Source: a virus. From it: 33,247 nt of DNA. Below are positions 5,482 to 29,555 of the stretch, piece by piece. The position numbers were made by a program, and so were the translations under genes. The stretch lies in the IMG/VR virus record IMGVR_UViG_3300009782_000011; one strand, written 5' to 3'. Positions within the stretch are counted from its first letter, which is position 1, and every line of letters begins with the position of its first letter. Below the pieces are notes generated by a model that saw nothing but the letters and a program-made list of their open reading frames with translations, made no database searches and was not told where the DNA came from.

Positions 5482-5510
5482 AAAATTTTAAGTTATGTTT
5501 TTATAATTAA

Positions 5511-5539: not shown

Positions 5540-5543
5540 TAAA

Positions 5544-6926: not shown

Positions 6927-6935
6927 ATTTTAAAT

Positions 6936-9588: not shown

Positions 9589-9613
9589 AATTTTAAAATT
9601 AGTTTATAAAAAA

Positions 9614-10210: not shown

Positions 10211-10214
10211 AGTA

Positions 10215-10625
10215 TTAGCCTTTAATAATAAAAATGTCTTTTATTTTCTTATTGTTAAATATTTTTGTTTTTATTATTTTATCAACTGCTACTGTCATCT
10301 CATACAATAAAATTTCTGCGTCTTTGCTATAATCAAAGTCAATGCTATTTTTTGGAAATTTCTTTTTGAACTCTCTTTGTATTTTCTTTAAATCTAAAAA
10401 CTTTTGTCCGTCTAACACCCTCAAAAAAGCCCCTTGCTTGACCTGTATTGCGTGGTTGATCGCGACCCTTTCCTTGTCGCCATTTTCTAACTCAATAAGT
10501 GCAGGCAATGCACCTATTAAAAAATATCTAACCTCTTGCTTAATTTCCCCCTTTTTTCTTTTAAACTTTGAGTCGTAATTAAATCTAAAAATTAAATTTC
10601 TTGCGACTATTTCTCTTGTTATCAT
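10215..10625 (-). CDS. Hypothetical protein (136 aa)
   Basis: Long ORF packed tightly in the gene array. No motif recognised. Confidence 0.55.
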   Translation of the reverse strand: MITREIVARNLIFRFNYDSKFKRKKGEIKQEVRYFLIGALPALIELENGDKERVAINHAIQVKQGAFLRVLDGQKFLDLKKIQREFKKKFPKNSIDFDYSKDAEILLYEMTVAVDKIIKTKIFNNKKIKDIFIIKG

Positions 10626-10629
10626 ATTT

Positions 10630-10842
10630 TTATTTTTTAACTTTATATTTTTTGCCGTTTATTTCGATTGTTTCTCCAACCCCATAAAAAGCACCGACCA
10701 ATTTTAAGCCGTTATTATTAAAAATAGCCAAAGCACATAATCTCCAAATAAACGGAGGCAAGAACTTCGGCCTTTCCCTTAAATACAAAACAAAAGTATG
10801 CTTTGTATTTTTTCTTATTTTTTTTGCTATTTTTGTGTTCAT
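10630..10842 (-). CDS. Hypothetical small basic protein (70 aa)
   Basis: ORF in the array; overlaps the upstream gene by 4 nt. Confidence 0.5.
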   Translation of the reverse strand: MNTKIAKKIRKNTKHTFVLYLRERPKFLPPFIWRLCALAIFNNNGLKLVGAFYGVGETIEINGKKYKVKK

Positions 10843-11561
10843 ACTCCAATTGTTAATTTTTTTGATAAATTTGCCCTCATCTCTGCGAGCTTTCTGTCTA
10901 TTCTTTCCTGTTCCTCTCTTGATCGTGGCTTGCTCATTTCTTTCAATTGCTTTTGCACTTCGTCCTCTTGTGCTTTGCTTTCTGAAATTGCCTTTGTCTT
11001 TTCTCTGATTTCTTTATCACTTGGCAACTTCTCCGGCTTTGCCCATTTCTTTCGATTTCTCAACCAAGTAGCCCAACGCTGTTTCATCATAAAGGTTGTT
11101 TGTTTTTGCCAATGCTCTTTTTTTCCTCCCTCATTCTTTGCAGTCCAATAATCAAGAAAAGCCTCTCTCTCCTCTTTTAGCTCGATTGGTAAAACTCCAA
11201 TCTGCTCATCAAACTTTTCAACAAAAGATTTCCCCTTTTTGATTTCCGGTCCTTGTATTTCCTCCCCGACTATTTGTGGGTATAACTTTCTTAAATTTCC
11301 AGTCCTTGCGTCAACAAAACTTTTTAAAAATCCTCTGTCCTCTAATTCCTTAATCAATCGACTGACTTGTGTAATACTAATTTTGTAAAGATTGGCGAAG
11401 TATTGATTGGAGGCCCAACAATACCCCTCAATGTTGCTCAATGCTGTTATTTCAGCAAATAGCAATTTAGCCGTAGAGCCGACCTTTTCATCATATCTCA
11501 CACTTGCCGGCAATACTGCCCAAAAACTTGGCTTTTGATTTTCATTTTTTAAATTCTCCAT
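10839..11561 (-). CDS. HTH replication-organiser/initiator-like protein. The ATG at 11561 is preferred over the GTG at 11576.
   Basis: FWAVLPASVRYDEKVGSTAKLLFAEITALSNIEGYCWASNQYFANLYKISITQVSRLIKELEDRGFL is typical of phage replisome-organiser N-terminal winged HTH domains. Confidence 0.6.
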   Translation of the reverse strand: MENLKNENQKPSFWAVLPASVRYDEKVGSTAKLLFAEITALSNIEGYCWASNQYFANLYKISITQVSRLIKELEDRGFLKSFVDARTGNLRKLYPQIVGEEIQGPEIKKGKSFVEKFDEQIGVLPIELKEEREAFLDYWTAKNEGGKKEHWQKQTTFMMKQRWATWLRNRKKWAKPEKLPSDKEIREKTKAISESKAQEDEVQKQLKEMSKPRSREEQERIDRKLAEMRANLSKKLTIGV

Positions 11562-11567
11562 AATTTT

Positions 11568-11596
11568 ATTATACACTATTTTTTAAACCTTAGCAA
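11568..11596 (-). promoter_or_regulatory. Promoter P3: TTGCTA-17-TATAAT, third copy of the early-promoter family. The -10 ends 6 nt before the ATG at 11561.
   Basis: Minus strand: TTGCTA AGGTTTAAAAAATAGTG TATAAT AAAATT ATG. The spacer is nearly identical to P2. Confidence 0.55.
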
Positions 11597-11981
11597 TAGT
11601 TATTTCAACGCGAGGGTATTCCCTATCAATTCCCCCCGTTTCGTATTGTGTCGATATAATATGATTGTCATCATCGTCTTTTATGCAACCATAATGAACG
11701 AGTGCGTCACAAAAAAACTTTTCCACAACTGACAAGATGTTCGACCGGTCCAATCGACCACCTCTTGCCCTCCACAATACAAATTTTATTTTTATTGGCC
11801 TATCAAATTTTACTCCCGACAATTGCAATTCCATATCATCGCAATATTTTTCTTTTACTTGATTGTTTATCATAAAATGCAAATTGCGATAAACATTGAG
11901 ATTGAGCAAAACTTTTTTGTCTGCCTTTGTTTTTCTTGGCAGTGTAACAGATAACGGACTTGTAAATTTAAACTCGTTCAT
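11583..11981 (-). CDS. rusA: RusA-family Holliday junction resolvase. The start is at the internal Met, because the longer ORF would overlap the tRNA.
   Basis: LNVYRNLHF...DRSNILSVVEKFFCDALVHYGCIKDDDDNHI pattern of RusA endonucleases. Confidence 0.75.
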   Translation of the reverse strand: MNEFKFTSPLSVTLPRKTKADKKVLLNLNVYRNLHFMINNQVKEKYCDDMELQLSGVKFDRPIKIKFVLWRARGGRLDRSNILSVVEKFFCDALVHYGCIKDDDDNHIISTQYETGGIDREYPRVEITIAKV

Positions 11982-11993
11982 AATTTTATTTAG

Positions 11994-12066
11994 CGAGAGG
12001 GGCAAGTTTCGAACTCACTTCTTCGGTTTTGGAGACCAATATTTTAGCCGATTAAACTACCCTCCC
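11994..12066 (-). tRNA. trnW: tRNA-Trp (anticodon CCA), no encoded CCA end
   Basis: Manual fold of the minus strand: GGGAGGG TA GTTT AATCGGCTA AAAT A TTGGT CTCCAAA ACCGA AGAA GTGAG TTCGAAA CTTGC CCCTCTC G. U8, GG in the D-loop, U33, A37, T-loop TTCGAAA and G53-C61 are all present. The discriminator is G73, the bacterial Trp type. Confidence 0.85.
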
Positions 12067-12070
12067 GTTA

Positions 12071-12226
12071 TTATTTTTTAATTTTAATATTTTTGTTTTT
12101 ATTTGCATTACTTAATTTATACAATACTGCATAAACCAAAGCAACCCTGTCATCTCTTTTCCACCGAGAGCCTTTTGGCATTTCACCAACACACCTCTCT
12201 GCTAATTTCATCAGCTCTTTTTTCAT
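12071..12226 (-). CDS. Hypothetical 51-aa protein
   Basis: Manual translation: MKKELMKLAERCVGEMPKGSRWKRDDRVALVYAVLYKL... Fills the gap between the upstream gene and the tRNA. Confidence 0.4.
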   Translation of the reverse strand: MKKELMKLAERCVGEMPKGSRWKRDDRVALVYAVLYKLSNANKNKNIKIKK

Positions 12227-12229
12227 AAA

Positions 12230-12472
12230 CTATTTTTGTATTGGAGGAAAAACACAATTCCGTCCCCAACCAGTATAAATATATCTGCCACCATTTTCCT
12301 CGCACCAAATGCAATCATCTCTAACCACTCCCGCCATATTTGGACATCTCAAATCGTAGTTTTTTTCAATTCCCTCCAAATAAAGCACGACAGCGAAAAC
12401 AGTTCCAACAAAAGCAATGACTAATGAAATTATAATCAAAAAATTAAAAATTTTCTTACTTTCTATTTTCAT
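12230..12472 (-). CDS. Membrane-anchored small Cys-rich protein (80 aa)
   Basis: N-terminal TM FNFLIIISLVIAFVGTVFAVVLYL followed by a Cys-rich domain. Confidence 0.55.
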   Translation of the reverse strand: MKIESKKIFNFLIIISLVIAFVGTVFAVVLYLEGIEKNYDLRCPNMAGVVRDDCIWCEENGGRYIYTGWGRNCVFPPIQK

Positions 12473-12788
12473 ATTTATTTTTTAAAAATTTATAAATTTG
12501 TTGCCAATTTTTCTTTGGCATTCTTTCGCATAAATCCTCAATGTCGGCCCTGATAATTGCTCTGTATTGATTGAACTCTTTATTGAGGCCTTTCCCTCGA
12601 TGATGATATGTGCAAACCGGCACGATCGCCCAAGCCTCATTGATTTGCTTTCCTGCATAAAGCCAAGCGTGTTCCCACTCGACTTTGCCTTGACAATCCC
12701 CTCCCCCGTCTGTTCCCTTGTAAATGCACTTGCACATAAAAGGGTCACGAGCTATCTCGTTCCTTAGTTTTTGTGGTATTGGTCGCAT
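12456..12788 (-). CDS. Zinc/HNH-like nuclease-type protein (NinG/Rap-like?)
   Basis: CKC...C...EWEH...VPVCTYHHRG arrangement resembles HNH/Rap-type structure-specific nucleases. Confidence 0.4.
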   Translation of the reverse strand: MRPIPQKLRNEIARDPFMCKCIYKGTDGGGDCQGKVEWEHAWLYAGKQINEAWAIVPVCTYHHRGKGLNKEFNQYRAIIRADIEDLCERMPKKNWQQIYKFLKNKYENRK

Positions 12789-12795
12789 AATTTTA

Positions 12796-12945
12796 AAAAA
12801 TCAAGATAATCATTCCGGCAATGGCGATGATGAACGAGGCAATAGCAAGGCGATTTCCGTTCTTGCTATTGCAACCCCCAACAAATACCAAACCGGAGAT
12901 AACCATCATTGCAACCGAGATTGTAATGTAGATTGTGGTTTGCAT
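12796..12945 (-). CDS. 49-aa double-TM membrane peptide
   Basis: Manual translation: MQTTIYITISVAMMVISGLVFVGGCNSKNGNRLAIASFIIAIAGMIILIF. Confidence 0.45.
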
Positions 12946-12949
12946 ATTT

Positions 12950-13219
12950 TTAAGCAATATATTCTTTGTAGAATTTATTTGCGATACTTAAACACTTTTG
13001 TAGCCTTTCGTTGTATTGTCCTTTTTTTATTTTTTCAACTCTTTCAACCTTTATCTCTCCCACTGCTATAACTTTGCAATCACTACAAATTGACGAGCCA
13101 ATCTTTTCCTTTTCTAAAAAAATAGTAATGTAATAATCTCCGAAGTAGGCAATAAATAATCCCCCATTGTATTCTTTTATTTCCGTAAAGTCTTTTATTG
13201 TTAACATATTTTTAAACAA
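12950..13219 (-). CDS. Hypothetical protein (89 aa)
   Basis: ORF in the array. Confidence 0.5.
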   Translation of the reverse strand: MFKNMLTIKDFTEIKEYNGGLFIAYFGDYYITIFLEKEKIGSSICSDCKVIAVGEIKVERVEKIKKGQYNERLQKCLSIANKFYKEYIA

Positions 13220-13220
13220 T

Positions 13221-13604
13221 TTATAAGTAGATGTCCTCTGGACTTGGCAACTCGATTTCTAACTTCTCCCGACAAAGTTGCACAATCTTGTCGAGGTAGA
13301 TCGTGAACTCTCCCGAGTCGAGAGCTGTCGTGCTACGAACTAACGGAATTTTTTTCGTGTGGTCAGTCAAAAACATTGCTTTGAATGTCGAGTGTAATTC
13401 CTCCGGCAAAAATCCCGTGTCCTCGCTAATCACTCCGAGCCAAAACCAATAAAGAGAATTTTGGCTCACACTTCGAAAATTCCTTTTTAGCTTAATCTCA
13501 ATCTGAACTTCTTGGCCGTCTTTCAACTGGTCAACATACTCCTTGACCTTGATTGGATTATTATATTGCACTCTGCCTTTGATTTTTTTTCCAAAAAATT
13601 TCAT
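13221..13604 (-). CDS. NinB/Orf-like recombination mediator. The start is at the internal Met, abutting the upstream stop.
   Basis: RSVSQNSLYWFWLGVISEDTGFLPEELHSTFKAMFL...STTALDSGEFTIYL resembles lambda NinB (RSLDQN..LWA.LGD..). Confidence 0.45.
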   Translation of the reverse strand: MKFFGKKIKGRVQYNNPIKVKEYVDQLKDGQEVQIEIKLKRNFRSVSQNSLYWFWLGVISEDTGFLPEELHSTFKAMFLTDHTKKIPLVRSTTALDSGEFTIYLDKIVQLCREKLEIELPSPEDIYL

Positions 13605-13605
13605 A

Positions 13606-14205
13606 TTAGTAGCTGTTAATTGCAATCTCCTCCTCGATGATTTCGCAACCTGCAACCTTTTCTCCATTTAAAAGAGCTTGTTTGATTTTAGCCTCGTCCG
13701 GCACTAAATAAGCCCTCGGGATTTTCTCTTGGTCAACAATGTTCAATCTCTTGACCTTTCTTGTTTTTATTGCCTCGACCTTTTCAGCAACCCTCTCAAC
13801 TGATTTTGCAAGTTTCTCTGTGTTTATTTCAACATCATTCTCGGTTGCCTCCTCGATTTTTTTCAATGCCTCCTCCTCTCTCTTTCTTTGCTCTGCGATT
13901 AGTTTTTGACTATATTTAAGCATTTGGTCCTTAACCCAACCCTCGACTAAATCCAATTTGTCCTCGATTGGTTTAAATAATGCCCGAGTATTTTTCAATG
14001 CCTCATTCAAAGGTTTTGTGATTGCCTCTTTTTTTTCGGTCACTTCTTTTCTAACTCCTTTGACTTTAATCATTATCTCCTTTGCTGTTTCAAAGGTTGG
14101 TTGTGAATTGACAACAATTCTCGAATTGCTTGCCATATCATCAACAATCACTTTCGCCTCATCGATTGCCTCCTGTGTATTTAGTTTTATTATTTCTTGT
14201 GCCAT
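13606..14205 (-). CDS. Coiled-coil phage protein (Gp157/DUF1351-like?)
   Basis: 199 aa, long helical Lys/Glu-rich centre, C-terminal IPRAYLVPDEAKIKQAL motif. Confidence 0.35.
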   Translation of the reverse strand: MAQEIIKLNTQEAIDEAKVIVDDMASNSRIVVNSQPTFETAKEIMIKVKGVRKEVTEKKEAITKPLNEALKNTRALFKPIEDKLDLVEGWVKDQMLKYSQKLIAEQRKREEEALKKIEEATENDVEINTEKLAKSVERVAEKVEAIKTRKVKRLNIVDQEKIPRAYLVPDEAKIKQALLNGEKVAGCEIIEEEIAINSY

Positions 14206-14216
14206 AAAGATTTTTT

Positions 14217-14411
14217 TTAATTATATTTTTGATTAAATTTCTGCTCTGACATTGAAATCAAGACAATGAAGTCAATCAATGACCAGATACCAAATCCCCC
14301 GAGAGTAAAGAGCATTAAAATTCCTGTCCCAGTTTTACCCAAGTAAAATCTATGAACTCCTAACCCTCCGAGAAAAAAACAAAGTAGAACTGCAACGATT
14401 TTGTTTTTCAT
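14217..14411 (-). CDS. TM2 domain membrane protein
   Basis: AVLLCFFLGGLGVHRFYLGKTGTGILMLFTLGGFGIWSLIDFI. Confidence 0.75.
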   Translation of the reverse strand: MKNKIVAVLLCFFLGGLGVHRFYLGKTGTGILMLFTLGGFGIWSLIDFIVLISMSEQKFNQKYN

Positions 14412-14428
14412 TTTTTTATATTTAATTT

Positions 14429-14833
14429 TTAAAAAGGAATGTCCTCAATCCTTATCTCATTAACATCGTCATCAACTTCCGTGCTTTGAGGCTTTGAGTC
14501 CTCCTGCTTATTTCCTCCACCTAAAAACTCGAACTCGTTAACGATGACTTTTGCCATTATTTTTTTAATTCCATTCTTGTCCTCATAATTCTCGTAAGTC
14601 ATTTCTCCAATGATCGCAACCTTTGAGCCTTTTGATAACCACTTTGCAAAGGTTTCTCCGGCCTTTCCCCAAATAACAAGATTGTGAAATGATACCCTCT
14701 CCTGCTTTTGACCACTATCGTCAACCCACCTTTTATTTGTTGCCAAAGGAACGGAGGCGACAAGCTTTCCTGTTTGTGTATTTCTCAACTCGACATCTTT
14801 TGCCAAGTTTCCAATTAAAATGATTTTGTTCAT
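14429..14833 (-). CDS. ssb: Single-stranded DNA-binding protein
   Basis: MNKIILIGNLAKDVELR...FHNLVIWGKAGE OB-fold signature and acidic C-terminal tail ...IEDIPF. Confidence 0.92.
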   Translation of the reverse strand: MNKIILIGNLAKDVELRNTQTGKLVASVPLATNKRWVDDSGQKQERVSFHNLVIWGKAGETFAKWLSKGSKVAIIGEMTYENYEDKNGIKKIMAKVIVNEFEFLGGGNKQEDSKPQSTEVDDDVNEIRIEDIPF

Positions 14834-14842
14834 ATTTTTTGA

Positions 14843-15286
14843 TTAAAATAAATTAGTTTGTGGGGACTTCTCTTTTTGATAGTCCTCCCGTCTTTTATAG
14901 CTAAATTGGTCCACCTCATCGACCGACAAATCGACCGGCTCGGTTTTGTGTGTCCTCCAAGCCTCGTGGTCATAAGGTATAGCAACATTTTTAAAAGTAG
15001 CAACTGGATTTTTGATTGTTGTTTCCCCATAAATAAACATTGTCCCCTTTTCTGTCGGCCCCCAACCCTCTGCTGTTCTGAAAACTAAATCAAAATATTG
15101 TAGCTTTTGAAAATTAGCAAGCTGATTGTAGTTAAGGCTAAGGTCTTTTTGTAGATTGCAGACCTTTCCTGTTTTCTCATAAAAATCAACTAACTGCCTC
15201 AATGCTTTGACGAGTGGCAAGTTTAAATTGTGAGTATATGCTGTGACCACTCCACCACAGCAGTCGCAAGTCTCTCTATAATGCAT
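14843..15286 (-). CDS. Hypothetical Cys-cluster (zinc?) protein, 147 aa
   Basis: N-terminal CDCCGG motif. Lies in the array between the HNH and ssb genes. Confidence 0.5.
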   Translation of the reverse strand: MHYRETCDCCGGVVTAYTHNLNLPLVKALRQLVDFYEKTGKVCNLQKDLSLNYNQLANFQKLQYFDLVFRTAEGWGPTEKGTMFIYGETTIKNPVATFKNVAIPYDHEAWRTHKTEPVDLSVDEVDQFSYKRREDYQKEKSPQTNLF

Positions 15287-15755
15287 ATTGTTTTAAATTT
15301 AATAATCTTTTATCTTTTGTCATATGGCACTTTCTGCAAAGCCACTCAAAGTCATCAACATCTCTTTTATACTCTCCCGAAATGTTTGCGAGGTCAATCG
15401 GTTTCGTATTCTTACAACACTCGCAAAAATCTGTCTTTTTCTTTCTCCTCCTAACCCAATTATGCAGGGCAATAATTCCAACAAAATCTCCTTTCCAGTT
15501 TGGATTTTTATCACCAAACAATCTGCTCGGCCCTTTCTTTTTATATCTCGCCATTTCTCTAAAATTCACAACCTCCCTGTTTTTATTTCTATAACAATTT
15601 TGATATTCTCTTATTTTTTCGGACCTCTCTCTTTGTGATATTAAATGACAATTTTTGCAAGCAGACGAGAGTTTGTCTTTTTTTTGTTTGTCCCTATAAA
15701 AAAGATTGATGTTAAGTTCTTTCTTGCACTTTGAGCAAACCTTGACATATGCCAT
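15276..15755 (-). CDS. HNH homing-type endonuclease with an N-terminal zinc finger
   Basis: CSKCKK...CKNC; ALHNWVRR...CECC...LANISGEY...WLCRKCH. Confidence 0.7.
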   Translation of the reverse strand: MAYVKVCSKCKKELNINLFYRDKQKKDKLSSACKNCHLISQRERSEKIREYQNCYRNKNREVVNFREMARYKKKGPSRLFGDKNPNWKGDFVGIIALHNWVRRRKKKTDFCECCKNTKPIDLANISGEYKRDVDDFEWLCRKCHMTKDKRLLNLKQYAL

Positions 15756-15765
15756 AATTGTAAAA

Positions 15766-16554
15766 TTATTTTATAATTGCCTCTGCCTCTTTTTTTAGCT
15801 GTGCTAAATAAAGACAAGACAGAAAACCTTTTCTAAGTTTTGGGGTTGCCTTAAACTCCTTGCACTCGAAATCTGCTGTGTCTTTTCCAAATCTAACAAT
15901 CCAACAACTATCAAATTTTTTCTTGCTTTCCTCCTCGTGGGCGATAGCATAACCACTCACTTGCAAAAGCATTTCCCAATAAATTCCATTGCCGGTCTTG
16001 AAATCAATCAAACAATATTTCCCGTCAACCTCTGCGATACAATCTAATGTCCCGACAAAATCATTTTTTTTAGAGTAAACAAGCAATTCTGTTTCGATAA
16101 ATTTAACTTTATGCTTATTGACCCATTGCAAAAATGCTAGGTAGCCATTTTCCACTTCTTGAATTTTAGGAATTTTTGGCATTTTTTTTAATTTTCCCAA
16201 GTGGAAATCTATTGTCTTGCTGGCTAAATCGTGAATGATTTTCCCCTTGTCGGCCGAGTCATCTCTTTTCTCCCTCCAAGCATTTTTTGCGAGAGATATG
16301 TCATAGTTTGTGATTTTTTTCCCTTGATTAAATGTCAACAAAATTCTTTTCTCCATTTCTGACACGGCCCAAGGTATAAGAGCCGGTTTGTCTAATATTC
16401 CGGTCGCCTTTGTGACCGATGTTAGCCACTCTTGATTTTCCCTCCTGATGTAAATGTGATTATAGCGTCCGTATTTTTCATAAAAATCAATTGTGACACT
16501 CCCGTCATATTTCTTGTAAACCTTGTCCGGTATTACAATTTTAGTTTTCGCCAT
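15766..16554 (-). CDS. PD-(D/E)XK (RecB/Cas4/YqaJ-like) exonuclease. The ATG at 16554 is preferred.
   Basis: GTLDCIAEVDGKYCLIDFKTG...LQVSGYA (D...D/ExK...Q..Y). Confidence 0.7.
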   Translation of the reverse strand: MAKTKIVIPDKVYKKYDGSVTIDFYEKYGRYNHIYIRRENQEWLTSVTKATGILDKPALIPWAVSEMEKRILLTFNQGKKITNYDISLAKNAWREKRDDSADKGKIIHDLASKTIDFHLGKLKKMPKIPKIQEVENGYLAFLQWVNKHKVKFIETELLVYSKKNDFVGTLDCIAEVDGKYCLIDFKTGNGIYWEMLLQVSGYAIAHEEESKKKFDSCWIVRFGKDTADFECKEFKATPKLRKGFLSCLYLAQLKKEAEAIIK

Positions 16555-16564
16555 ATAAATAAAA

Positions 16565-16699
16565 TTATTTTTTAATCCTCGCCTCAATCTCTCTCAACTC
16601 GGCCTCTAATTTGTAAATCTCTTTTTTCTTTCTTTCGATTTGTGATTTTACTTTTCGAGCCTCGTTCATTAAGATTTGGTCTGCTTTGTTCATCAACAT
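16565..16699 (-). CDS. 44-aa coiled-coil peptide
   Basis: Manual translation: MLMNKADQILMNEARKVKSQIERKKKEIYKLEAELREIEARIKK. Fills the spacer between the annealase and exonuclease genes. Confidence 0.35.
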   Translation of the reverse strand: MLMNKADQILMNEARKVKSQIERKKKEIYKLEAELREIEARIKK

Positions 16700-19333: not shown

Positions 19334-19885
19334 CTATTTGTTAATTGTAAAACTATCTCCCAAAATTCGAACTGTTAATCTCTGCACTCCGAATTTCAAT
19401 GCTCTTTCCTTTTCCCAAAGGTTCATCGCTATATCGACCCGATTGGAATAGCGAGAGTTCATTCTGTCCTCAACGACACAAGTCATCTCCCAACCATTAT
19501 CAGCAATGATTTGCAACCTTGTCCCGAAGGGCACGAAATTAGCGGCACAAATATTTTCTCCCTTTGCGACTTTCTCACAAAGATTTTTGTTTGAGGCCCC
19601 GACACAAGGGTCGCCCCAGTTTTGATTTTGGTCGCCCAAGTTATAGGCAGTCACTTCTCGAATTGTTTCACTTTCAATCTTGATGACCTCGACCAACTCT
19701 TGCTTTTCAACTCCGACCTTTTGCTCTGATAATTTTTCAATGTCCCCCTTTAACTTTTCGAAGTTAATCAAGATCGTGATTGATACTCCCAAGATTATCA
19801 GCAGAATTGAAATCAGCTGAATTTTGAAAACTCTTTTTTTTGTTTTCCTTTTTTTTGTGTTGTAAAATCTTTTTTGATTTTTCAT
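19334..19885 (-). CDS. Membrane-anchored 3D-domain (MltA/RlpA-like double-psi beta-barrel) putative peptidoglycan lytic protein
   Basis: N-terminal basic stretch plus TM (IQLISILLIILGVSITILINF). C-terminal: VTAYNLGDQNQ...GENICAANFVPFGTRLQI...CVVEDRMNSRYSNRVDIAM. Confidence 0.65.
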   Translation of the reverse strand: MKNQKRFYNTKKRKTKKRVFKIQLISILLIILGVSITILINFEKLKGDIEKLSEQKVGVEKQELVEVIKIESETIREVTAYNLGDQNQNWGDPCVGASNKNLCEKVAKGENICAANFVPFGTRLQIIADNGWEMTCVVEDRMNSRYSNRVDIAMNLWEKERALKFGVQRLTVRILGDSFTINK

Positions 19886-20596: not shown

Positions 20597-20625
20597 ATTA
20601 TAAACCTTTTTATAAACTTTCGCAA
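20597..20625 (-). promoter_or_regulatory. Promoter P1 (early): TTGCGA-17-TATAAT
   Basis: Minus strand: AAAGAC TTGCGA AAGTTTATAAAAAGGTT TATAAT, about 35 nt upstream of the ATG at 20560. Confidence 0.7.
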
Positions 20626-20720: not shown

Positions 20721-20750
20721 TAAACACAAAAACACCCCCGAGGGAGTGTC
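20721..20750 (-). terminator. Intrinsic terminator closing the late (lysis) transcription unit
   Basis: Minus strand: ACAC(U)CCC-UCG-GGGGUGU followed by UUUUUGUGUUU. Confidence 0.65.
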
Positions 20751-20840: not shown

Positions 20841-21971
20841 CTAATTTTTTTGCTCGAATTCTCCGTCAATCAATTTTTCCCAGTCAATAGAGCCGTCTGT
20901 TTTCTTTGGCACTTCAATTCCGAAATTAAGGCATAAACTTGTTAATGCCTCCGGCGAAATAGCAGGTTGCCAAATACCAACTGCCGGCCCATTCTTGTCT
21001 TTTAAAATTTTAACATTTGTTTTTATTGTAGACATATTGTTCCAATTATTATTTTTATCAATTAAGGTCCAAGGAGTAAAAACTCCAAAGACATCAAAAT
21101 AGTTTTGTTTTAATTTTTGCCAACCATTGACCCCGATATTTCCCCAAGAATTGATTGGCGAAATAAAAGGCTTTTTGTCTTTATCTAGACCACACTTGCC
21201 ACCAAACAAAGCGTGTTTCCATTGAACTTGCTGACCCTCTTTCGGTGGTTGTGGGTATTCAGAAGTCCAAGTCCCATTGTTAACTCCGTCAACTCCGAAA
21301 TAAGTGCCAAACCCAAGTAACATCTCCCAAGCCATTCTGTTCATCAAATCTTGAAATCCTGTTATGGTCCGATACTCTTTTGATTGCAAGGCCTCTCTGA
21401 TCGCTTTGAGTTCTTTTGTTTCAACAGGCTTGACCAAATACTCTGCCTCGCTGTAAGGATTTCTAACTTCCCCGTAGTCCATTTTTATTTTATGATAACA
21501 AGGCACTAATTCCTCCGTGCCGACACCTCTCTCGCAAGACAATTTTAAAGCGTCCCTCAAATAAGCACCTTGACCACTACCGAGCGAAATGTAGGCATAA
21601 ATATCACGAGGCGAGATTTCAATGTATTTTCCGGTTTCAATGAAATTTAAAACCTCTAAATAATAGCCCAATCCTTGACCCGTGCAAGATGATGACTGCC
21701 CTTGATTTTTTATTGGCAGTTTAAAAGGCTCAATTTGCCTCTCCTTGCATTCTTTGACGATTTCTCTATAACGAGCCACCCCCCAAGCATTTCGACCTCC
21801 TACGCCCCAAAATTCCTCCTCTGACGAGCAACTGGCTCGATAGCCGAGCAACAATTCTATGTCAAAGCCCAACTCCCAATCAAAAGGCCCAACACTTGCG
21901 AAAAGTTTGTCCCTCTCATCGATCGTTGGCTTTCCAAGACCTGTCCCAAATTTTTCCTCTGCTAATTGCAT
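20841..21971 (-). CDS. Papain-like (family C1) cysteine peptidase in the endolysin position
   Basis: All four C1 catalytic landmarks are present in order: KNQGQSSSCTGQG (Gln oxyanion + Cys), WKHALFGG (His), INSWGNIGVNGW (Asn-Ser-Trp). It is the last gene of the late operon, preceded by four small membrane proteins. Confidence 0.7.
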   Translation of the reverse strand: MQLAEEKFGTGLGKPTIDERDKLFASVGPFDWELGFDIELLLGYRASCSSEEEFWGVGGRNAWGVARYREIVKECKERQIEPFKLPIKNQGQSSSCTGQGLGYYLEVLNFIETGKYIEISPRDIYAYISLGSGQGAYLRDALKLSCERGVGTEELVPCYHKIKMDYGEVRNPYSEAEYLVKPVETKELKAIREALQSKEYRTITGFQDLMNRMAWEMLLGFGTYFGVDGVNNGTWTSEYPQPPKEGQQVQWKHALFGGKCGLDKDKKPFISPINSWGNIGVNGWQKLKQNYFDVFGVFTPWTLIDKNNNWNNMSTIKTNVKILKDKNGPAVGIWQPAISPEALTSLCLNFGIEVPKKTDGSIDWEKLIDGEFEQKN

Positions 21972-21976
21972 AAGTA

Positions 21977-22174
21977 TTATTTTATTTTTTTAAAATAGTC
22001 AACGATATTTGCACCCCACACTAATCCCGATATAGTGATGAAAACCGTGCAAAGAGTCACATCTGCCCCTTGTCCTCCGATTGCTCTGATGATTGTTGAA
22101 AATACCAACAACAAAGAGGACACAATAGTCACAAACCACTTCATTGCGTGCTTTCCGTTATTAGCCTCCTGCAT
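21977..22174 (-). CDS. Holin-like 2-TM membrane protein (65 aa)
   Basis: WFVTIVSSLLLVFSTIIRAI and LCTVFITISGLVWGANIV. Lies directly upstream of the peptidase gene. Confidence 0.55.
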   Translation of the reverse strand: MQEANNGKHAMKWFVTIVSSLLLVFSTIIRAIGGQGADVTLCTVFITISGLVWGANIVDYFKKIK

Positions 22175-22181
22175 AGCTTTT

Positions 22182-22301
22182 CTAAGTTAAAATATTTATA
22201 ATTTTATCGAGCCACCCATATTTATGTTGGAGAGTTCCCCCGACCATAACTCCTGCAAGGAAAGTGACTATTGATTGAACGATGATTTGTAATACTTCCA
22301 T
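22182..22301 (-). CDS. 39-aa single-TM peptide
   Basis: Manual translation: MEVLQIIVQSIVTFLAGVMVGGTLQHKYGWLDKIINILT. Confidence 0.4.
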   Translation of the reverse strand: MEVLQIIVQSIVTFLAGVMVGGTLQHKYGWLDKIINILT

Positions 22302-22305
22302 ATTT

Positions 22306-22443
22306 TTAAAAATAAAACTCTTTTATTACTTGCACAAATATATAAAGCCAAAATGCACAAAACGAAATCACCGAGATCGCAATAAAAGAAATCAGCAAAC
22401 CAAAAATAACATTTAAGATTTTAGATATTTTAAGTTTAGCCAT
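22306..22443 (-). CDS. 45-aa single-TM peptide (internal Met of the 60-aa ORF)
   Basis: MAKLKISKILNVIFGLLISFIAISVISFCAFWLYIFVQVIKEFYF. Confidence 0.4.
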   Translation of the reverse strand: MAKLKISKILNVIFGLLISFIAISVISFCAFWLYIFVQVIKEFYF

Positions 22444-22622
22444 TTTGTTAAATAATTTAATAATCCAATTGCAGGGACAATCCACCAAAAACTCAAATCC
22501 TGTAAATAGGCAATCAAAACCAAAACCAAACCATTAAGAGATTGCCACAAATAAGTTTCGAATTTCTTTGATGTTATAAATCCCTTTATTACTGACCAAA
22601 TTTGTTCAAAAAATTTTTTCAT
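22413..22622 (-). CDS. Holin-like membrane protein (69 aa)
   Basis: Two hydrophobic helices (LNGLVLVLIAYL, WWIVPAIGLLNYL). First gene after the fibre gene. Confidence 0.5.
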   Translation of the reverse strand: MKKFFEQIWSVIKGFITSKKFETYLWQSLNGLVLVLIAYLQDLSFWWIVPAIGLLNYLTKWLNLKYLKS

Positions 22623-22671
22623 ATGTTTGTATTAAGTTATAATATTAAGTTATATTATTATATTAACATTT

Positions 22672-22717
22672 TTGACAATACCCTCTTGACATTTATGTTA
22701 AGACCCTATTGACATTT
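22672..22717. repeat. Direct repeats carrying three TTGACA hexamers: CCCT(C/A)TTGACATTT at 22681-22694 and 22704-22717, plus TTGACA at 22672-22677
   Basis: Read directly, in the 111-nt spacer between the fibre gene and the lysis cassette. Confidence 0.7.
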
Positions 22718-22733
22718 TTGTATATACCCCCAC

Positions 22734-24023
22734 CTATAACTCTGCCTCGTGCCACAAACTAAGTGTTGCTGTTCCGGTGCTTAAAGTAGATGTTATTTTG
22801 TAATAATAATTTGGCGGGACAATAAATGTGATTGGGTATGTTTGAGTATTATCAGCAGTTGAGTCATTGATTAAATTTCTTGCCCTTAAAATATTTATAT
22901 TTGGCGTGTCAGTTGGGCCAATAAATGCGTCTATTTGTGCATAATGGCTTGCAGTAGTTCCACTATATAAATCAATAACTGCATAAACAATCAAGGCTTT
23001 TTTGCTTGTGTTTTGATATGTTGTCCCGATCGCCCTTGTTTTAAATTCTGCTATTGGAGTTATGTTTCTTATTTCTGCGTTTATTTGATTATCATTTCCA
23101 AGCCTAATCAAATTGTAATCATCTCCCTGACCTGCAACCTCTGTTGCATTAGCACCTAAATCTAAATAAGTCGCGACTGAAATGTCAGTCCCAGAACTTG
23201 GTGCTTGTAATTTTAAAATTGAACTCTTTGCACCCCCGTCACAAAATATTTCAAAATGGTTTGTATTCCACAAAACAATTTCATTTTTTCCGGTTTCAGT
23301 TCTTATCTCTGATTGTATTATTTTTGACAACAAAGCCTCTCCGGCAGGGAAATTTATTTCACACCTCATTGCCCCCCCCGTGCTATAATCTGGCCACAAA
23401 GCGAACTCTCCGGCAATTGGACTTGTGCTATGGAAATAAACATCTAAACCATAATTGTTGCCAGATACAAAATCACAATAAACACCTAAAAAATATCTTT
23501 TATTTGCCTCCAATTCTTGGTTCATAGTAAAAGACACAAGACTCGCAGATGTTGAGAAATTGGCGGTTGGGACTGATACCTGTTTTACTGGATTTGCCCA
23601 ATCAACTGTCGTCCCGGTGACATTATAAATCCCGACAAGAACATTCCCAGTTGGGGAGCCTGTGCTTTTTTTGCAATAAATTCTAACGGTAGACACATAT
23701 GGATTTGTTGTTGGCGTAAAAGATTGACCAAATTTTCGACTGCTGTATGTTCTATTGTCAAAATCAGAACTTGTTTTTTCCAATTTAGACGCAACAAAAC
23801 TTGTCAAATCAACTCCGACATTTCTTTGAACGCCATCTATTGTCGCCTTAAAAGCACCATTGTTTGCACCAGTTCTAAGGGCTGTAAAATTCGCAATAAC
23901 AACACTTGTTCCACCAATCAATTTTGCAGGCGATAACGCAACAACATTGTCGGGGTCTATGCTGTTCACATTTACTGCCGGCAATTTTTCTCCCGGATTA
24001 AATTTGTATTTATCTAGTCCCAT
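22734..24023 (-). CDS. Tail fibre / receptor-binding protein
   Basis: 429 aa, Ser/Thr/Asn/Gly-rich. Last large gene of the tail module. Confidence 0.5.
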   Translation of the reverse strand: MGLDKYKFNPGEKLPAVNVNSIDPDNVVALSPAKLIGGTSVVIANFTALRTGANNGAFKATIDGVQRNVGVDLTSFVASKLEKTSSDFDNRTYSSRKFGQSFTPTTNPYVSTVRIYCKKSTGSPTGNVLVGIYNVTGTTVDWANPVKQVSVPTANFSTSASLVSFTMNQELEANKRYFLGVYCDFVSGNNYGLDVYFHSTSPIAGEFALWPDYSTGGAMRCEINFPAGEALLSKIIQSEIRTETGKNEIVLWNTNHFEIFCDGGAKSSILKLQAPSSGTDISVATYLDLGANATEVAGQGDDYNLIRLGNDNQINAEIRNITPIAEFKTRAIGTTYQNTSKKALIVYAVIDLYSGTTASHYAQIDAFIGPTDTPNINILRARNLINDSTADNTQTYPITFIVPPNYYYKITSTLSTGTATLSLWHEAEL

Positions 24024-24961: not shown

Positions 24962-26461
24962 TTAAGCTAATAATCCCCTGTCGAGCAAAAACTCTCTTTT
25001 TTTGTCATCATTTCCGGTCGGAGTATAAGGACACAAAACGAACTCCAACTCTGACGGGTCAAACGGGTCTTTGGCGATGTCCTCCTCAATCTCAATTGTC
25101 TTGTGGTCATTTCCTATCGCCTCCATTGGCCCAATCTGCTCTGTGACGCCTATTTCTGCACTCTCTTGATAATACTTCTCCAAAACATCGTCCTCGTTAA
25201 AATCAACCCTTTTATTGTCATTGAGCAACTTGTCTTGTAAGAATTGAATAATCCCCATTGTTTTCAATGTGGCCAACTCCACCGACCACTCGCCCTTTGT
25301 CCGAGTAATCATCAACAGAGTCACCCTTTGAATTACAAAAGAGTCGCTAACTAATCCGGTAATATTTATTGTTAATGTTTGGCCACTTTTTAGGCCACTT
25401 GTATAGGTCCGAAATCCACCCTCACGAATTGACCGACCATAAGCCTCCAATTGAGCCTCCCCATACAATTTTGCCTCCTCTGAACTCTTGATTGTTTTAT
25501 CTGTTTTAGCAAACTCAAATCTCCCATAAGTAGAAATGCTTGCCAAATCCTCAACCTGCACAATAATCGGTATAAGTGGGTAGCCCTCAATTTCAATCTC
25601 GTGGGTAGATGTAGGTGCAACATCAAATCGAATGTATTTTTGATTATAATCCCAATAGCAATCAAATCCCGACTGGTCCAAATTTTCAGTCCCAACGGTC
25701 ACGGCGACACTATCAACTCGAACGATTGGTCTGCTTGCGAATTTGTAATCTGTATTGAATGTCTTTTGAATTCCGTCAGCAATATGAGTTTTTGTTCTTG
25801 TGTTTGTTGCAACCTTATCTCCCCCTCTAATTGTCACAGAATTTCGCAATTGGCTCAAATCATTTTCTAATTTTAAACTATCGCCAATTATATCTTTTGA
25901 ATTATCAGAAATCAAAAAGGGTGCAATCTCTGTATTCTTAACAAAAAAGTGAATGTCCTTGTCATAATCAATATACCAATTATAGTTTACTAATCGAGCA
26001 AGTTCTGAAATACATTTTGAGATTGTCATTTTATTAAAAACAATCTTGCTTACTGCTATTGAGCAATCGACATTGTCATAAGTAATCCCCGAAGTGTAAT
26101 TGTCGATAATATACTCAATGACCTCTCCGACAGTTGTGCTTGTAAAACTATCGGTCACCAAAATCCTGTCCAATTCTGATGTGTAGTCTTTACAACCGAC
26201 CTCATAACTAACAACATCTCCCTCGATTGAATTCCCTATTGATAAAATTCTCCCTGCAAATATTTTATCAACTCCGTCAAAAACCTCAATCTCATCATTG
26301 ACATTTGGAGAGTATGTTTGGCCTGTATATTTCTTAACGACAAAAGAGCAAGTGTTAGGTTGCTCGTCAACATTGTCCTCGATTGAAAATGACGGCCAAT
26401 CGATTAAATCTGTTTTGTCTATTGAATTGATGTAAACTTGTAAATCCATACTATAAAGCAT
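24962..26461 (-). CDS. Distal tail / baseplate hub protein
   Basis: 499 aa, immediately downstream of and overlapping the tape-measure gene. Confidence 0.5.
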   Translation of the reverse strand: MLYSMDLQVYINSIDKTDLIDWPSFSIEDNVDEQPNTCSFVVKKYTGQTYSPNVNDEIEVFDGVDKIFAGRILSIGNSIEGDVVSYEVGCKDYTSELDRILVTDSFTSTTVGEVIEYIIDNYTSGITYDNVDCSIAVSKIVFNKMTISKCISELARLVNYNWYIDYDKDIHFFVKNTEIAPFLISDNSKDIIGDSLKLENDLSQLRNSVTIRGGDKVATNTRTKTHIADGIQKTFNTDYKFASRPIVRVDSVAVTVGTENLDQSGFDCYWDYNQKYIRFDVAPTSTHEIEIEGYPLIPIIVQVEDLASISTYGRFEFAKTDKTIKSSEEAKLYGEAQLEAYGRSIREGGFRTYTSGLKSGQTLTINITGLVSDSFVIQRVTLLMITRTKGEWSVELATLKTMGIIQFLQDKLLNDNKRVDFNEDDVLEKYYQESAEIGVTEQIGPMEAIGNDHKTIEIEEDIAKDPFDPSELEFVLCPYTPTGNDDKKREFLLDRGLLA

Positions 26462-28004
26462 TACTCAATTTTAATTTCTTGATAATCATATCGCCAACCT
26501 TTTCTCCTGCTTGTCTATCAAGATATGTCCCGTTTAAATAAATATTAAAAGTGCTACCCATTCCTGTATTTCTGCCCAAAGGCACAACTGCCTCCGGTCC
26601 GGCCTCTCCGATTAAAGCAAGGGTTGGTTGTGTGACAATTCCTCCCTCTGCTAATTTTGGTATTGTATTGATTTTATTTATATTGACCCCCGGGACTAAA
26701 TTTATGCCACCGATGACAAGATCGTTAAACTTTTTAATCAGCCAATTTAATTTATCTATAACCCAATTGACTGCACTTTTAAAAGCATTCTTTATCACTT
26801 CCCCTATACTTTCAAAAACCTTTGTAAAAAATTCCCCGATTTTATTTGCGACATTTCCAAACCAAGCAATCGAGGCAGAAAAGAAATCGAAAACTCTTTG
26901 CCATACCCCCATTATGCTTGTGCCAATCACATTAAAAAAATCAAATATTCTTTGCCACAATCCCACTATAAACTCGCCAACTATGTTAAAAAATTCTAGT
27001 AATCCCTCCCACATCAAACGAATTCCTGCGACTATGCTGTCCCAATTTTGATAAACAACCCAACCGAAAGCAACGAGTGCAACGAGGGCCAACACAACCA
27101 ATCCGATCGGAGATGACAATGCAGTTATAACAACCCCGACCATTTTAACCAACGAAATCATTGTTGTAATAACTTTTAAGATAGGAAATAATACTGCCAT
27201 TAGTCCGAGAACTCCACCTGCTATCAAAACAATATTTTTGACTAACTCTTGATTGTTTCTAACCCATTCTGCGAATGTTTGAACTACTGGCAAAACTGCA
27301 TTGATGACATCTTGCATAATTGGCAAAAACACCTCTCCAATATCAGCAGAAAGGTCTTTGAATTGCTTTGACATTTGTTGCAATCTTTCTGCCGGTGTTA
27401 ACATAACCTCTCCGATGTTTGCCAACTCTGCTGAACCGTCTTGCAAAATTTTGTTCATTATAAATTGAGCGTCCATTGCAACACCCATTGCACTTGCCTC
27501 CTCTGCCCAGCCTTTTGTAATAATACCCAAGTTATCTAAAATAAGAGGCGACCCTCTACCGATACCTGTAACCATATCATTAAAAGCCTGTGTTGTGTCT
27601 AAACCAAGGGCCATTCCCTTGACCCTTGCAATCTCCAACAACTTTGCGATGTCCTCCATACTATCTCCAACACCCAAAGCTGCCGCCTTATTTACGGAGA
27701 GCATTATATCTTTATTTGCGATTGTTCCCTTTGACACTTCGTTCAATTTTTCCAACATCTCATCTCCCGACGCACCGAAGTCTTTTGACAATCTTTCGAA
27801 AGATGTTGCTATGCTTTGAAATTCTGACGCGTCTTGCACCGTCTTTCCAATTCCGGCAGAAAGTGCAGCAAAACCTATCGCACCGACTTGCGATATTCTT
27901 TTAAATTGAGGCTCTAAATTTTTGAGTGTCTTTTCAATTCCCCCGAGAGTCTTTGAGGCCTCATCTTTCGCATTTATTAAAATTGTTAGGTCTTTTACTG
28001 CCAT
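26451..28004 (-). CDS. Tape measure protein
   Basis: 517 aa with a helical N-terminus, a central hydrophobic/TM block and internal repeats (GLWQRIFDFFNVIG / GVWQRVFDFFSASI). Follows the chaperone pair. Confidence 0.85.
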   Translation of the reverse strand: MAVKDLTILINAKDEASKTLGGIEKTLKNLEPQFKRISQVGAIGFAALSAGIGKTVQDASEFQSIATSFERLSKDFGASGDEMLEKLNEVSKGTIANKDIMLSVNKAAALGVGDSMEDIAKLLEIARVKGMALGLDTTQAFNDMVTGIGRGSPLILDNLGIITKGWAEEASAMGVAMDAQFIMNKILQDGSAELANIGEVMLTPAERLQQMSKQFKDLSADIGEVFLPIMQDVINAVLPVVQTFAEWVRNNQELVKNIVLIAGGVLGLMAVLFPILKVITTMISLVKMVGVVITALSSPIGLVVLALVALVAFGWVVYQNWDSIVAGIRLMWEGLLEFFNIVGEFIVGLWQRIFDFFNVIGTSIMGVWQRVFDFFSASIAWFGNVANKIGEFFTKVFESIGEVIKNAFKSAVNWVIDKLNWLIKKFNDLVIGGINLVPGVNINKINTIPKLAEGGIVTQPTLALIGEAGPEAVVPLGRNTGMGSTFNIYLNGTYLDRQAGEKVGDMIIKKLKLSNAL

Positions 28005-28577: not shown

Positions 28578-29555
28578 TTAGTAGCTTGCTTGTGTGTTGG
28601 TCAATATCGCCTCAATGCTCTTGCTATCTGTTAGTGAGTAAAATCCTTTAAACGATACAGACAAACTTGCAATGTCATTATTTCCACCCGATACTTTTGC
28701 CTCGCTGAATTTTACTTTTGCAAGGTCAATGACAAGTTTTGGGTGAGAGGTTGTTCCGATTGTGACGGCTGAATTTTCCAACTCAATCCTCATTGATTTG
28801 GCTAATCCCTGTATTGCATAATCTCTTTCGTAAACACTTGAAAAATACAATTCCATTGTTCCCTCGATTGTAAATTGTTTATTTAAGAAATCAGCAGGCC
28901 CGTCAGTTCCCAAAACATCTTTGTCCTCAATATTTTTTGATATTTCTATCTCAAAATTTTTGACATCTAATTTGTTTGCTGAACTAAGCCCTGCAAGAGT
29001 ATCGGCTAATTTAACCGAGATATTTTTTGCCAAGAAATAATTTTCTGCAACATAGCTCGGGGTAGCAGTTCCGGCAACTCCGGCCTTTCCTCTCAATGAG
29101 GCCTCAAAGGTAACATAGTCGTTGACCTCTGCTGATAATTTAAAACTATCAACAACAACATTTGCGAAAGCCTTTTGTTCGATGTCTCCTCTTTTAATTT
29201 CAAGAGTCAATGATTGGTGCAATGCAGATTGTAAAACTGCAAAGGTATGCTCATAAACTCCGGCGTCCCCAGACTTTCCGGCAGAATTTACTTGACCGAA
29301 AGCACCCAGTAAAAAATAACCGATTGACTTGTCAAACACTTCTCCCCCGACATTTCCTGCCGAGAAATTTTTTGCAACGACTTGATCGTCGCTGTCCTCA
29401 ATCACTCCCATTCCTCTCTCTGTTACTACTGGCTCAATCTCGTCATTGTATTCCTCTGTTGTTAACTTTAACCACATTGCAGGAGTGACCTTTGTTCCTC
29501 TTGTGGTTTCTTTTCCGACGCCCACATTAAATCGTCTTTTTAAAATCTCGCTCAT
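28578..29555 (-). CDS. Major tail (tube) protein
   Basis: 325 aa. By position, followed by the terminator and chaperone pair. The N-terminal FNVGVGKETTRGTKVTP pattern is typical of tail tube proteins. Confidence 0.65.
   Translation of the reverse strand: MSEILKRRFNVGVGKETTRGTKVTPAMWLKLTTEEYNDEIEPVVTERGMGVIEDSDDQVVAKNFSAGNVGGEVFDKSIGYFLLGAFGQVNSAGKSGDAGVYEHTFAVLQSALHQSLTLEIKRGDIEQKAFANVVVDSFKLSAEVNDYVTFEASLRGKAGVAGTATPSYVAENYFLAKNISVKLADTLAGLSSANKLDVKNFEIEISKNIEDKDVLGTDGPADFLNKQFTIEGTMELYFSSVYERDYAIQGLAKSMRIELENSAVTIGTTSHPKLVIDLAKVKFSEAKVSGGNNDIASLSVSFKGFYSLTDSKSIEAILTNTQASY

Follow-up and report, generated by a model that had tools for sequence, protein, structure and literature searches.

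We analysed a 33,247-nucleotide (nt) stretch of viral DNA, IMG/VR record IMGVR_UViG_3300009782_000011 (hereafter the window, meaning the whole stretch), which is a complete, circularly permuted phage genome of siphovirus-like type. The last gene of its late operon encodes a 376-amino-acid (aa) protein that is almost certainly a genuine papain-family C1A peptidase of the "short bacterial" xylellain type. This protein is probably an endolysin that is made in the cytoplasm, depends on a holin and is directed at the cell wall, with the C1A domain as its catalytic part. We infer this activity from the fold, the conservation of the catalytic residues, the absence of a signal peptide, the genomic position of the gene, its linkage to membrane-protein genes and the fusion of PG_binding_1 domains to the peptidase in relatives. 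An earlier reading of the window, made from its letters without database searches (the sequence-only reading), had proposed a lysis cassette built around a papain-type peptidase and four tiny membrane proteins, and the analysis reported here followed it up.

Assignment of the 376-aa protein to the papain family

The peptidase gene and its catalytic codons lie at the following positions.

20841–21971, minus strand: 376-aa peptidase (open reading frame, ORF), last gene of the late operon
21702–21704 (Gln90), 21684–21686 (Cys96), 21213–21215 (His253) and from 21150 (Asn274-Ser-Trp), minus strand: catalytic codons

The sequence-only reading had described a complete set of C1 landmarks in canonical order, and this description held. 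The protein contains the motifs NQGQSSSCTGQG (residues 89–100), KHALFGG (252–258) and NSWG (274–277), which supply Gln90 and Cys96, His253, and Asn274-Ser275-Trp276, respectively; the predicted catalytic set is Gln90, Cys96, His253 and Asn274. When the 376-aa sequence was searched against PDB sequences using phmmer, it matched cathepsin K (E = 6.5e-4), with both the Gln/Cys block (KNQGQSSSC/KNQGQCGSC) and the His/Asn-Ser-Trp block (KHALF...NSWG/NHAVL...NSWG) aligned. A database search returned 103 homologues, nearly all of them metagenomic and unnamed. In a 41-sequence alignment, Cys96 and His253 were invariant and Gln90, Asn274, Ser275 and Trp276 were at least 90% conserved; we observed the same conservation of the catalytic residues among 139 more distant representatives.

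Profile searches pointed the same way. The best match of the family profile in the PDB was xylellain (3OIS; E = 1.8e-16), covering profile positions 4–256, nearly the whole length, followed by chymopapain, cathepsin K and other C1 enzymes, with papain-type matches down to E = 6e-8. A search with the Peptidase_C1 model, which had been suggested as a check, gave a divided result: the query itself had no Pfam match, whereas several relatives passed the Pfam gathering score of 20.7 bits, among them P0041 (30.1 bits) and P0020 (26.6 bits), which are homologues with 49–58% identity, as well as P0092 and P0100. Moreover, 40 out of the 139 representatives matched Peptidase_C1 (PF00112) at E ≤ 0.001. 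The 376-aa protein had no Pfam match to CHAP (PF05257) or NLPC_P60 (PF00877) at E ≤ 1.

Structure prediction had also been proposed as a check, with a fold outside C1 as the outcome that would speak against the assignment. An AlphaFold2 model built on the alignment reached a mean predicted local distance difference test score (pLDDT) of 90.9. Foldseek found 280 matches to this model in the PDB at E ≤ 0.001, the best 50 of which were all C1 peptidases, and showed that the two-lobed papain fold is present. Xylellain ranked at the top (E = 2e-13; template modelling score 0.75 on the target), together with pro- and mature cathepsins, with scores normalised on the targets of 0.70–0.75. Because the profile matches, the conservation of the catalytic residues and the modelled fold all agree, there is little doubt that the protein is a true C1A family member.

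Two substitutions near the active site set the protein apart from papain: Ser93 replaces the disulfide-forming Cys22, and Thr97 replaces Trp26, as in xylellain. Both would fit a cytoplasmic rather than a secreted C1 enzyme, and the loss of Cys22 in particular fits folding in the cytoplasm. No cultured phage carrying the peptidase gene was found: tblastn searches of 50,697 GenBank phage records, with the 376-aa protein and two distant relatives as queries, returned nothing.

Domain layout and the conserved leader

The protein divides into four parts, all encoded on the minus strand.

21849–21971, minus strand: leader, residues 1–41, an N-terminal segment homologous to that of xylellain, with G.G..D..D.RD and PFDW as conserved motifs
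21726–21848, minus strand: helical insertion of about 40 aa, residues 42–82, specific to the 360–380-aa subfamily
21057–21725, minus strand: C1A catalytic domain, residues 83–305, defined by alignments, profile and model
20844–21026, minus strand: C-terminal module, residues 316–376, compact, with two beta strands, a helix and a short helix (stop codon at 20841–20843)

The insertion was absent from relatives of about 320–350 aa in the alignment and was modelled as helices (residues 38–77) with pLDDT above 90. Residues 309–318, which link the catalytic domain to the C-terminal module, had low model confidence. The module itself recurs in 68 of the collected homologues and is a putative cell-wall-binding or oligomerisation domain.

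Within the leader, residues G11, D18, R20, D21, P29 and W32 were at least 90% conserved in the 41-sequence alignment, and the profile alignment with 3OIS, from residue 29 onwards, takes in the leader motif. One refinement of the endolysin reading, rather than an alternative to it, is that the enzyme resembles a zymogen: residues 1–41 would occupy the active-site cleft and silence the enzyme until its release or its processing at the wall. The conserved G.G..D..D.RD motif (at least 90%), which aligns with xylellain residues 29–50, is consistent with this, as is the larger number of columns that Foldseek aligned with the pro-forms (319 for procathepsin K and 336 for xylellain) than with mature enzymes (about 240). 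In the 2013 structure paper of Leite and colleagues, the N-terminal region of xylellain reportedly covers the active site. However, conservation of the leader could equally mean that it is part of the mature fold, and we regard the refinement as tentative, with the odds against it.

Genomic position of the peptidase gene

Bases 1–123 of the window are repeated identically at its end (33125–33247), a terminal repeat of 123 base pairs (bp), and the unique length is therefore 33,124 bp. Every gene lies on the minus strand. PHROG searches identified the small and large terminase, portal, head protease and major capsid protein genes at 1453–7484 (with the head maturation protease at 2504–3349), the tape measure gene at 26451–28004 and a minor tail protein gene at 28578–29555. 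A recombination and replication block spans 9600–16600 and encodes ParB-like, replication initiator, RusA, NinB, SSB and exonuclease proteins. Transcription of the late operon proceeds from the terminase through the head and tail genes to genes for 499-aa, 200-aa and 94-aa proteins, followed by that for a 429-aa fibre-like protein, the four small ORFs and, finally, the 376-aa peptidase.

22734–24023, minus strand: 429-aa tail protein, fibre-like or receptor-binding-like, the final structural gene ahead of the lysis cassette
20722–20750, minus strand: hairpin resembling an intrinsic terminator, ACACTCCC-TCG-GGGGTGT followed by a T-run (sequence reading and fold)
20597–20625, minus strand: sigma-70-like promoter match TTGCGA-17-TATAAT, 10 of 12 positions, a consensus match only, preceding the next gene block

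The only long spacer of the genome lies directly downstream of the peptidase gene. It contains the hairpin at 20722–20750, which a simple terminator scan did not list and which, judged by its letters and fold, would be a terminator-like mark of the end of the late operon. Given this long spacer with its hairpin, T-run and promoter-like match, the peptidase gene is the last late gene. In siphoviruses, the last late gene is the usual site of the lysis cassette. The claim that the gene stands where an endolysin is expected was thus borne out: it follows the tail genes and the four membrane peptides, and the terminator-like hairpin follows it.

The 376-aa protein has a hydrophilic N-terminus and contains no signal peptide and no transmembrane (TM) or hydrophobic segment, the maximum 19-residue hydropathy being 0.98. 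Being signal-less, it resembles canonical holin-dependent endolysins. Among the scanned ORFs, which make up most of the genome apart from the connector genes at about 29.8–33.2 kb and the ORF across the linearisation point, we found no further lysin of the lysozyme, amidase or peptidase type.

The 429-aa protein is called fibre-like because of its position behind the tape measure and tail proteins; Pfam and PHROG family searches gave no match, and the related phage contig L011 has a similar 427-aa protein at the matching position. On the coding strand, the 111-nt spacer between this gene and the cassette (22623–22733) contains the direct repeat AAATGTCAA(T/G)AGGGT twice, at a distance of about 23 nt, and TGTCAA a third time. 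Given the orientation of the repeats, the TTGACA hexamers face the non-coding direction, and the repeats may be a regulator-binding site rather than a promoter.

Four small membrane proteins precede the peptidase

Upstream of the peptidase gene, the minus strand carries four conserved genes for small membrane proteins (69, 45, 39 and 65 aa), here termed A to D.

22413–22622, minus strand: small membrane protein A, 69 aa (ORF and hydropathy)
22306–22443, minus strand: small membrane protein B, 45 aa from the ATG at 22443, or 60 aa if translation starts at the TTG at 22488 (ORF and hydropathy)
22182–22301, minus strand: small membrane protein C, 39 aa, with one TM segment at about residues 4–23 (ORF and hydropathy)
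21977–22174, minus strand: small membrane protein D, 65 aa, with two TM segments (13–29 and 39–55) and a basic C-terminus, immediately upstream of the peptidase

The sequence-only reading had ended the late operon with four small hydrophobic ORFs of 69, 45–60, 39 and 65 aa. Its coordinates and lengths were correct, and the genes are conserved in relatives. The prediction of TM topology that it had called for gave, by hydropathy, one clear segment each in the 69-, 45- and 39-aa proteins and two in the 65-aa protein. The gene order is kept in L006, L011, L012 and L015, whose peptidases are 59–86% identical to the 376-aa protein. Because the same ordered set is conserved in these related phages, the four small ORFs are real genes. 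None of them matched Pfam, PHROG or NCBIfam, holin families included (for protein A, nothing rose above noise). By size, TM segments, basic termini and position beside the peptidase, they fit holins, a function that is predicted here.

Protein D is the best holin candidate of the four. Its orthologues in L006, L011, L012 and L015 are 62–65 aa long, and it contains an internal Met11 (AMKWFV; codon 22142–22144) within a Met-Lys-Trp-Phe-Val stretch that all of them keep. Met1 and Met11 could be the two starts of a holin/antiholin pair, a possible arrangement suggested by this conserved stretch. Proteins C and D are both strongly conserved among the related phages. Protein C has a conserved amphipathic C-terminal tail (QHKYGWLDKIINILT) and 39-aa orthologues, conserved in L011, L012 and L015; in L006, the orthologue is an ORF that the gene caller missed.

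Protein A has a basic amphipathic N-terminus and a Lys-rich C-terminus. Hydropathy scoring placed one segment above the threshold; by eye, two short hydrophobic helices (about residues 25–40 and 45–58) with QDLS between them form a hairpin. It is a candidate class-II-type holin or antiholin. Its orthologue in L006 has 70 aa. The first gene of the four-gene set belongs to a different sequence family in L011, L012 and L015; a different holin-like protein of 64–69 aa, scored with one or two TM segments, occupies the position of protein A in these contigs and in L007 and L008. Protein B has a basic N-terminus and a single hydrophobic stretch of about 30 residues, and its counterparts at the same position are 36–49 aa long. 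The last 31 nt of gene A also encode the start of gene B, in a different frame, and overlaps of 14–34 nt with the upstream gene recur in L006, L012 and L015, a layout that suggests translational coupling.

In L011, a 144-aa HNH-like gene (4147–4581) lies within the lysis cassette, between the first holin-like gene and the small peptides. We did not assign a spanin identity to any of the small peptides, as the sequences of the window and its relatives contain no conserved lipobox. A search for positional replacement, in which homologues of the holin-like proteins would stand before a classical lysin, returned only contigs that had already been collected.

Membrane-protein linkage, wall-binding domains and inteins in relatives

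To place the cassette in its family, we compared about 18 distinct phage contigs (the window, L001, L002, L004, L006–L009, L011–L017, L021/22 and L030–L032). In about 17 out of 18 contigs, genes for small TM proteins adjoin the peptidase gene or are separated from it by no more than a few short genes. The linkage persists where the peptidases are only 27–48% identical and in a high-GC phage. The exception is L030, in which the peptidase gene stands beside GroEL/GroES genes with no membrane protein nearby.

The partners themselves vary. The sequence-only reading had held that four membrane peptides exceed the usual number; four is indeed at the high end but not exceptional, and more distant relatives use other sets: at one end of the range, the peptidase has one membrane protein on either side, and at the other, it is accompanied by a 2-TM protein and a coiled-coil membrane protein. 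L002, L007, L009 and L032 combine a holin-like membrane protein with a tail-anchored coiled-coil protein, and in a further set the peptidase stands between an upstream type-II coiled-coil protein and a downstream 3-TM protein. One 3-TM neighbour weakly resembles the A118 holin (Hol118), below the Pfam threshold.

Directly upstream of the peptidase, five contigs encode a protein of 77–111 aa that begins with a coiled coil and is anchored by a TM segment at its C-terminus (L002, 5709–5999; L007, 3603–3887; L009, 1510–1743; L031, 3669–4004; L032, 3626–3913). The topology is reversed in L008, L016 and L021, with an N-terminal TM segment followed by a coiled coil. These coiled-coil neighbours are alike in architecture to XhlA; they were not identified as such, since Pfam XhlA was unmatched, and one of them passes DUF7201.

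An exhaustive profile search returned at least 379 clusters at 50% identity with E ≤ 1e-30. Among the 139 representatives, wall-binding domains were PG_binding_1 in 41 (about 30%), SH3_3 in one and PG_binding_3 in one. In the relatives whose domain positions were checked, PG_binding_1 is C-terminal and stands in place of the C-terminal module of the query. All three are classical wall-binding domains of endolysins, and the fusions support a wall-directed role, as judged from domain composition. The proposal that the C-terminal tail is a wall-binding module therefore stood in part: about 30% of the relatives carry PG_binding_1 there, but the tail itself matches no known domain.

The peptidase is interrupted in five relatives (P0258, P0301, P0361, P0352 and P0250) by inteins of about 290–375 aa with LAGLIDADG and Hint domains. 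In three of them, the intein directly precedes the catalytic Cys, and this Cys takes the +1 position in splicing; in another, the intein follows NSWG directly, and in the fifth it lies near residue 265. Inteins typically gather in indispensable genes, at sites of conserved function, and are unusual in a lysis-type gene. Their presence suggests that the peptidase gene is indispensable.

Host

The host is probably a member of the Bacteroidota. A Shine-Dalgarno-like motif precedes 1 out of 43 gene starts (the start at 31790), and the 20 nt upstream of the starts are 88% A/T; the G+C content of the window is about 36%. All 13 matches to the large terminase subunit (TerL) were phages of Bacteroidota or unnamed faecal phages. 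One close relative had been binned into a Bacteroidia metagenome-assembled genome (MAG), although the MAG labels (Aquaspirillum and Bacteroidia) belong to whole-phage contigs and on their own prove nothing about the host. A Patescibacteria host, indicated by one MAG label on a homologue of the barrel protein described below, is less likely given the TerL matches, the single Shine-Dalgarno-like start and the Bacteroidia bin. If the host is diderm, the outer membrane must also be breached; that one of the small peptides does this would be speculation.

Predicted lysis mechanism and alternatives

In the mechanism that we propose, the peptidase, as the final late-operon product, would build up late in infection. 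A lesion in the membrane would then be opened by at least one of the four small membrane proteins, with the 65-aa 2-TM protein as the prime holin candidate. The peptidase would pass through the lesion to the wall and cleave, in the stem or cross-link of the peptidoglycan, a peptide or amide bond. The 60-aa C-terminal module may retain it on the wall, like PG_binding_1 in relatives.

Several observations weigh against an endolysin role. The query has no match in PHROGs or NCBIfam and none in Pfam at E ≤ 1; it has no PG_binding_1 domain; and the profile of its C-terminal module gave only noise against Pfam and PDB sequences, with no known domain. For every family member, endolysin activity is a prediction from sequence. 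As far as is known, characterised C1A enzymes cut peptide bonds between L-amino acids in proteins. The stems of peptidoglycan, by contrast, contain D-residues and iso-peptide bonds, and a protein substrate would therefore be equally natural for the fold. No spanin-like pair was recognised in the window, which is relevant if the host is a diderm member of the Bacteroidota. Finally, the same genome encodes a second candidate wall enzyme, which the sequence-only reading had missed.

19334–19885, minus strand: 183-aa membrane-anchored double-psi beta-barrel (DPBB; "3D"-type) protein (homologue names, alignment, model and Foldseek)

The DPBB protein has a very basic N-terminus, a strong TM segment (residues 22–40; hydropathy 2.79), a stalk helix and a double-psi beta-barrel (64–182) in which Asp85, Asp140, Asp151 and four Cys residues are invariant. 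Its model (pLDDT 89.8) matched PA4485 (E = 4.5e-5) and, at E of about 0.02–0.03, MltA and YuiC, as well as kiwellin and expansins, in Foldseek searches. The Joint Genome Institute (JGI) labels its homologues "3D (Asp-Asp-Asp) domain"; the protein itself did not match Pfam 3D (PF06725) and had no match in a PDB sequence profile search. TM-anchored proteins of similar size occupy the equivalent position in L004 and L011–L016, 1–4 kb downstream of the peptidase, a likeness of size and position only. The protein could be a membrane-tethered muralytic enzyme, to judge from its model. The Foldseek neighbours also include the Streptomyces papain inhibitor SPI (5ntb). Speculatively, the DPBB protein might be an inhibitor of the C1 peptidase.

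The DPBB protein brings up the strongest alternative, in which it cuts the peptidoglycan and the peptidase is an accessory lysis protease that cleaves an envelope protein, such as an outer-membrane-to-peptidoglycan tether or a surface-layer protein, in the last step of envelope breakdown. The preference of characterised C1A enzymes for L-peptide bonds, the three invariant Asp residues and the structural likeness to MltA and YuiC argue for such a division of labour, as do the similar-sized TM-anchored proteins downstream of the peptidase in related phages and the lack of recognised spanin-like genes despite a probably diderm host. However, the fusion of PG_binding_1 to 41 out of 139 family members points to peptidoglycan and not to a protein target. 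The DPBB gene lies beyond the terminator-like hairpin and the promoter-like site, outside the late operon, and is therefore probably not part of the late cassette; its anchor is too strongly hydrophobic to resemble a signal-arrest-release (SAR) segment, and the absence of Pfam 3D and PDB sequence matches also counts against it. We consider an accessory role unlikely.

A non-lytic peptidase that processes or destroys host or phage proteins (in host takeover, anti-defence or virion maturation), with the membrane peptides as incidental neighbours, would suit the bacterial xylellain-type C1A enzymes, which have no established wall function, and the L030 relative beside GroEL/GroES, but it is very improbable given that the phage has its own head maturation protease, that the peptidase gene is the last late gene and not an early one, that holin-like genes are linked to it in about 17 out of 18 contigs, and that a cytoplasmic protease would not readily account for the PG_binding_1 fusions.

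A wall-directed, holin-dependent endolysin thus remains our preferred interpretation of the 376-aa protein. The wider proposal, that xylellain-type C1A peptidases are a large and so far unrecognised class of phage endolysins, seems to us evenly balanced. If it is true, a papain-family lysin would be a new catalytic module and C1A chemistry would reach the bacterial wall. It would offer a new enzymatically active domain for lysin engineering, possibly self-inhibited by its pro-region-like leader, explain the apparent absence of endolysins in many uncultured phages, here probably phages of Bacteroidota, and provide an annotation rule for hundreds of "hypothetical proteins". It would also raise the questions of which wall bond a C1A enzyme cuts and whether the N-terminal leader keeps the enzyme latent. 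If the target is instead a protein, the cassette would contain a protease-based step of envelope disruption.

Comparison with known systems

The sequence-only reading had called a papain-family enzyme unusual in the endolysin slot, and the literature agrees: our search found no description of a C1-family endolysin, and C1 is not mentioned in the searched surveys of endolysin catalytic domains, including one of endolysins in uncultured phages. To our knowledge, endolysin catalogues list CHAP, NlpC/P60, amidases, M15, M23 and glycosidases, and not C1. Two possible precedents, D29 LysA N4 and LysBT1, were set aside because they are C40 and an amidase, respectively.

Xylellain of Xylella fastidiosa (PDB 3OIS; MEROPS C1) is the best match of the 376-aa protein by both sequence profile and structure. 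The two share the catalytic Gln, Cys, His and Asn-Ser-Trp, a Thr after the catalytic Cys (Trp in papain) and the G.G..D..D.RD leader. Xylellain, a bacterial protein encoded on the chromosome, has neither a wall-binding module nor a connection with holins, whereas the phage protein has an extra 40-aa helical insertion and a 60-aa C-terminal module (PG_binding_1 in relatives) and lies at the end of a lysis cassette. Tailed phages (Myoviridae and Siphoviridae) are known to have acquired xylellain-type C1A peptidases, with no function assigned there (PMC10380794).

The CHAP (C51) and NlpC/P60 (C40) domains of endolysins, such as the LysK CHAP and D29 LysA N4, are also thiol enzymes of the papain-like superfamily. 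Phage lysins of these types cut the peptides of peptidoglycan, combine catalytic and wall-binding modules and are released by holins (10.1101/2025.01.22.634383; PMC10318531). They have minimal folds of about 100–140 aa with a Cys-His(-Asn/Glu/His) set; by contrast, the 376-aa protein shows the complete two-lobed fold of C1 enzymes, about 220 aa long, with an oxyanion Gln and Asn-Ser-Trp.

Viruses of eukaryotes offer a more distant parallel. Baculovirus V-cath is used late in infection and breaks down host barriers. It is among the viral acquisitions of C1A cathepsins (PMC10380794). V-cath and other viral cathepsins differ from the phage protein in originating from eukaryotic cathepsins, in being secreted, disulfide-bearing pro-enzymes and in targeting proteins of host tissue, not the bacterial wall.

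A parallel in gene order comes from Flavobacterium phage 11b, which ranks by TerL among the two nearest cultured phages and has a GH19 endolysin in the corresponding slot, after the tail module and before the Erf and SSB genes. We infer that the window contains a standard lysis cassette with a catalytic family that has not been described for endolysins. Like the holin-endolysin cassette of the phage 11b type, it runs from tail genes through small membrane proteins and a soluble, signal-less enzyme to early and recombination genes; unlike the canonical cassette, it has a C1 peptidase in place of the glycosidase or amidase, and four small membrane proteins in place of one or two.

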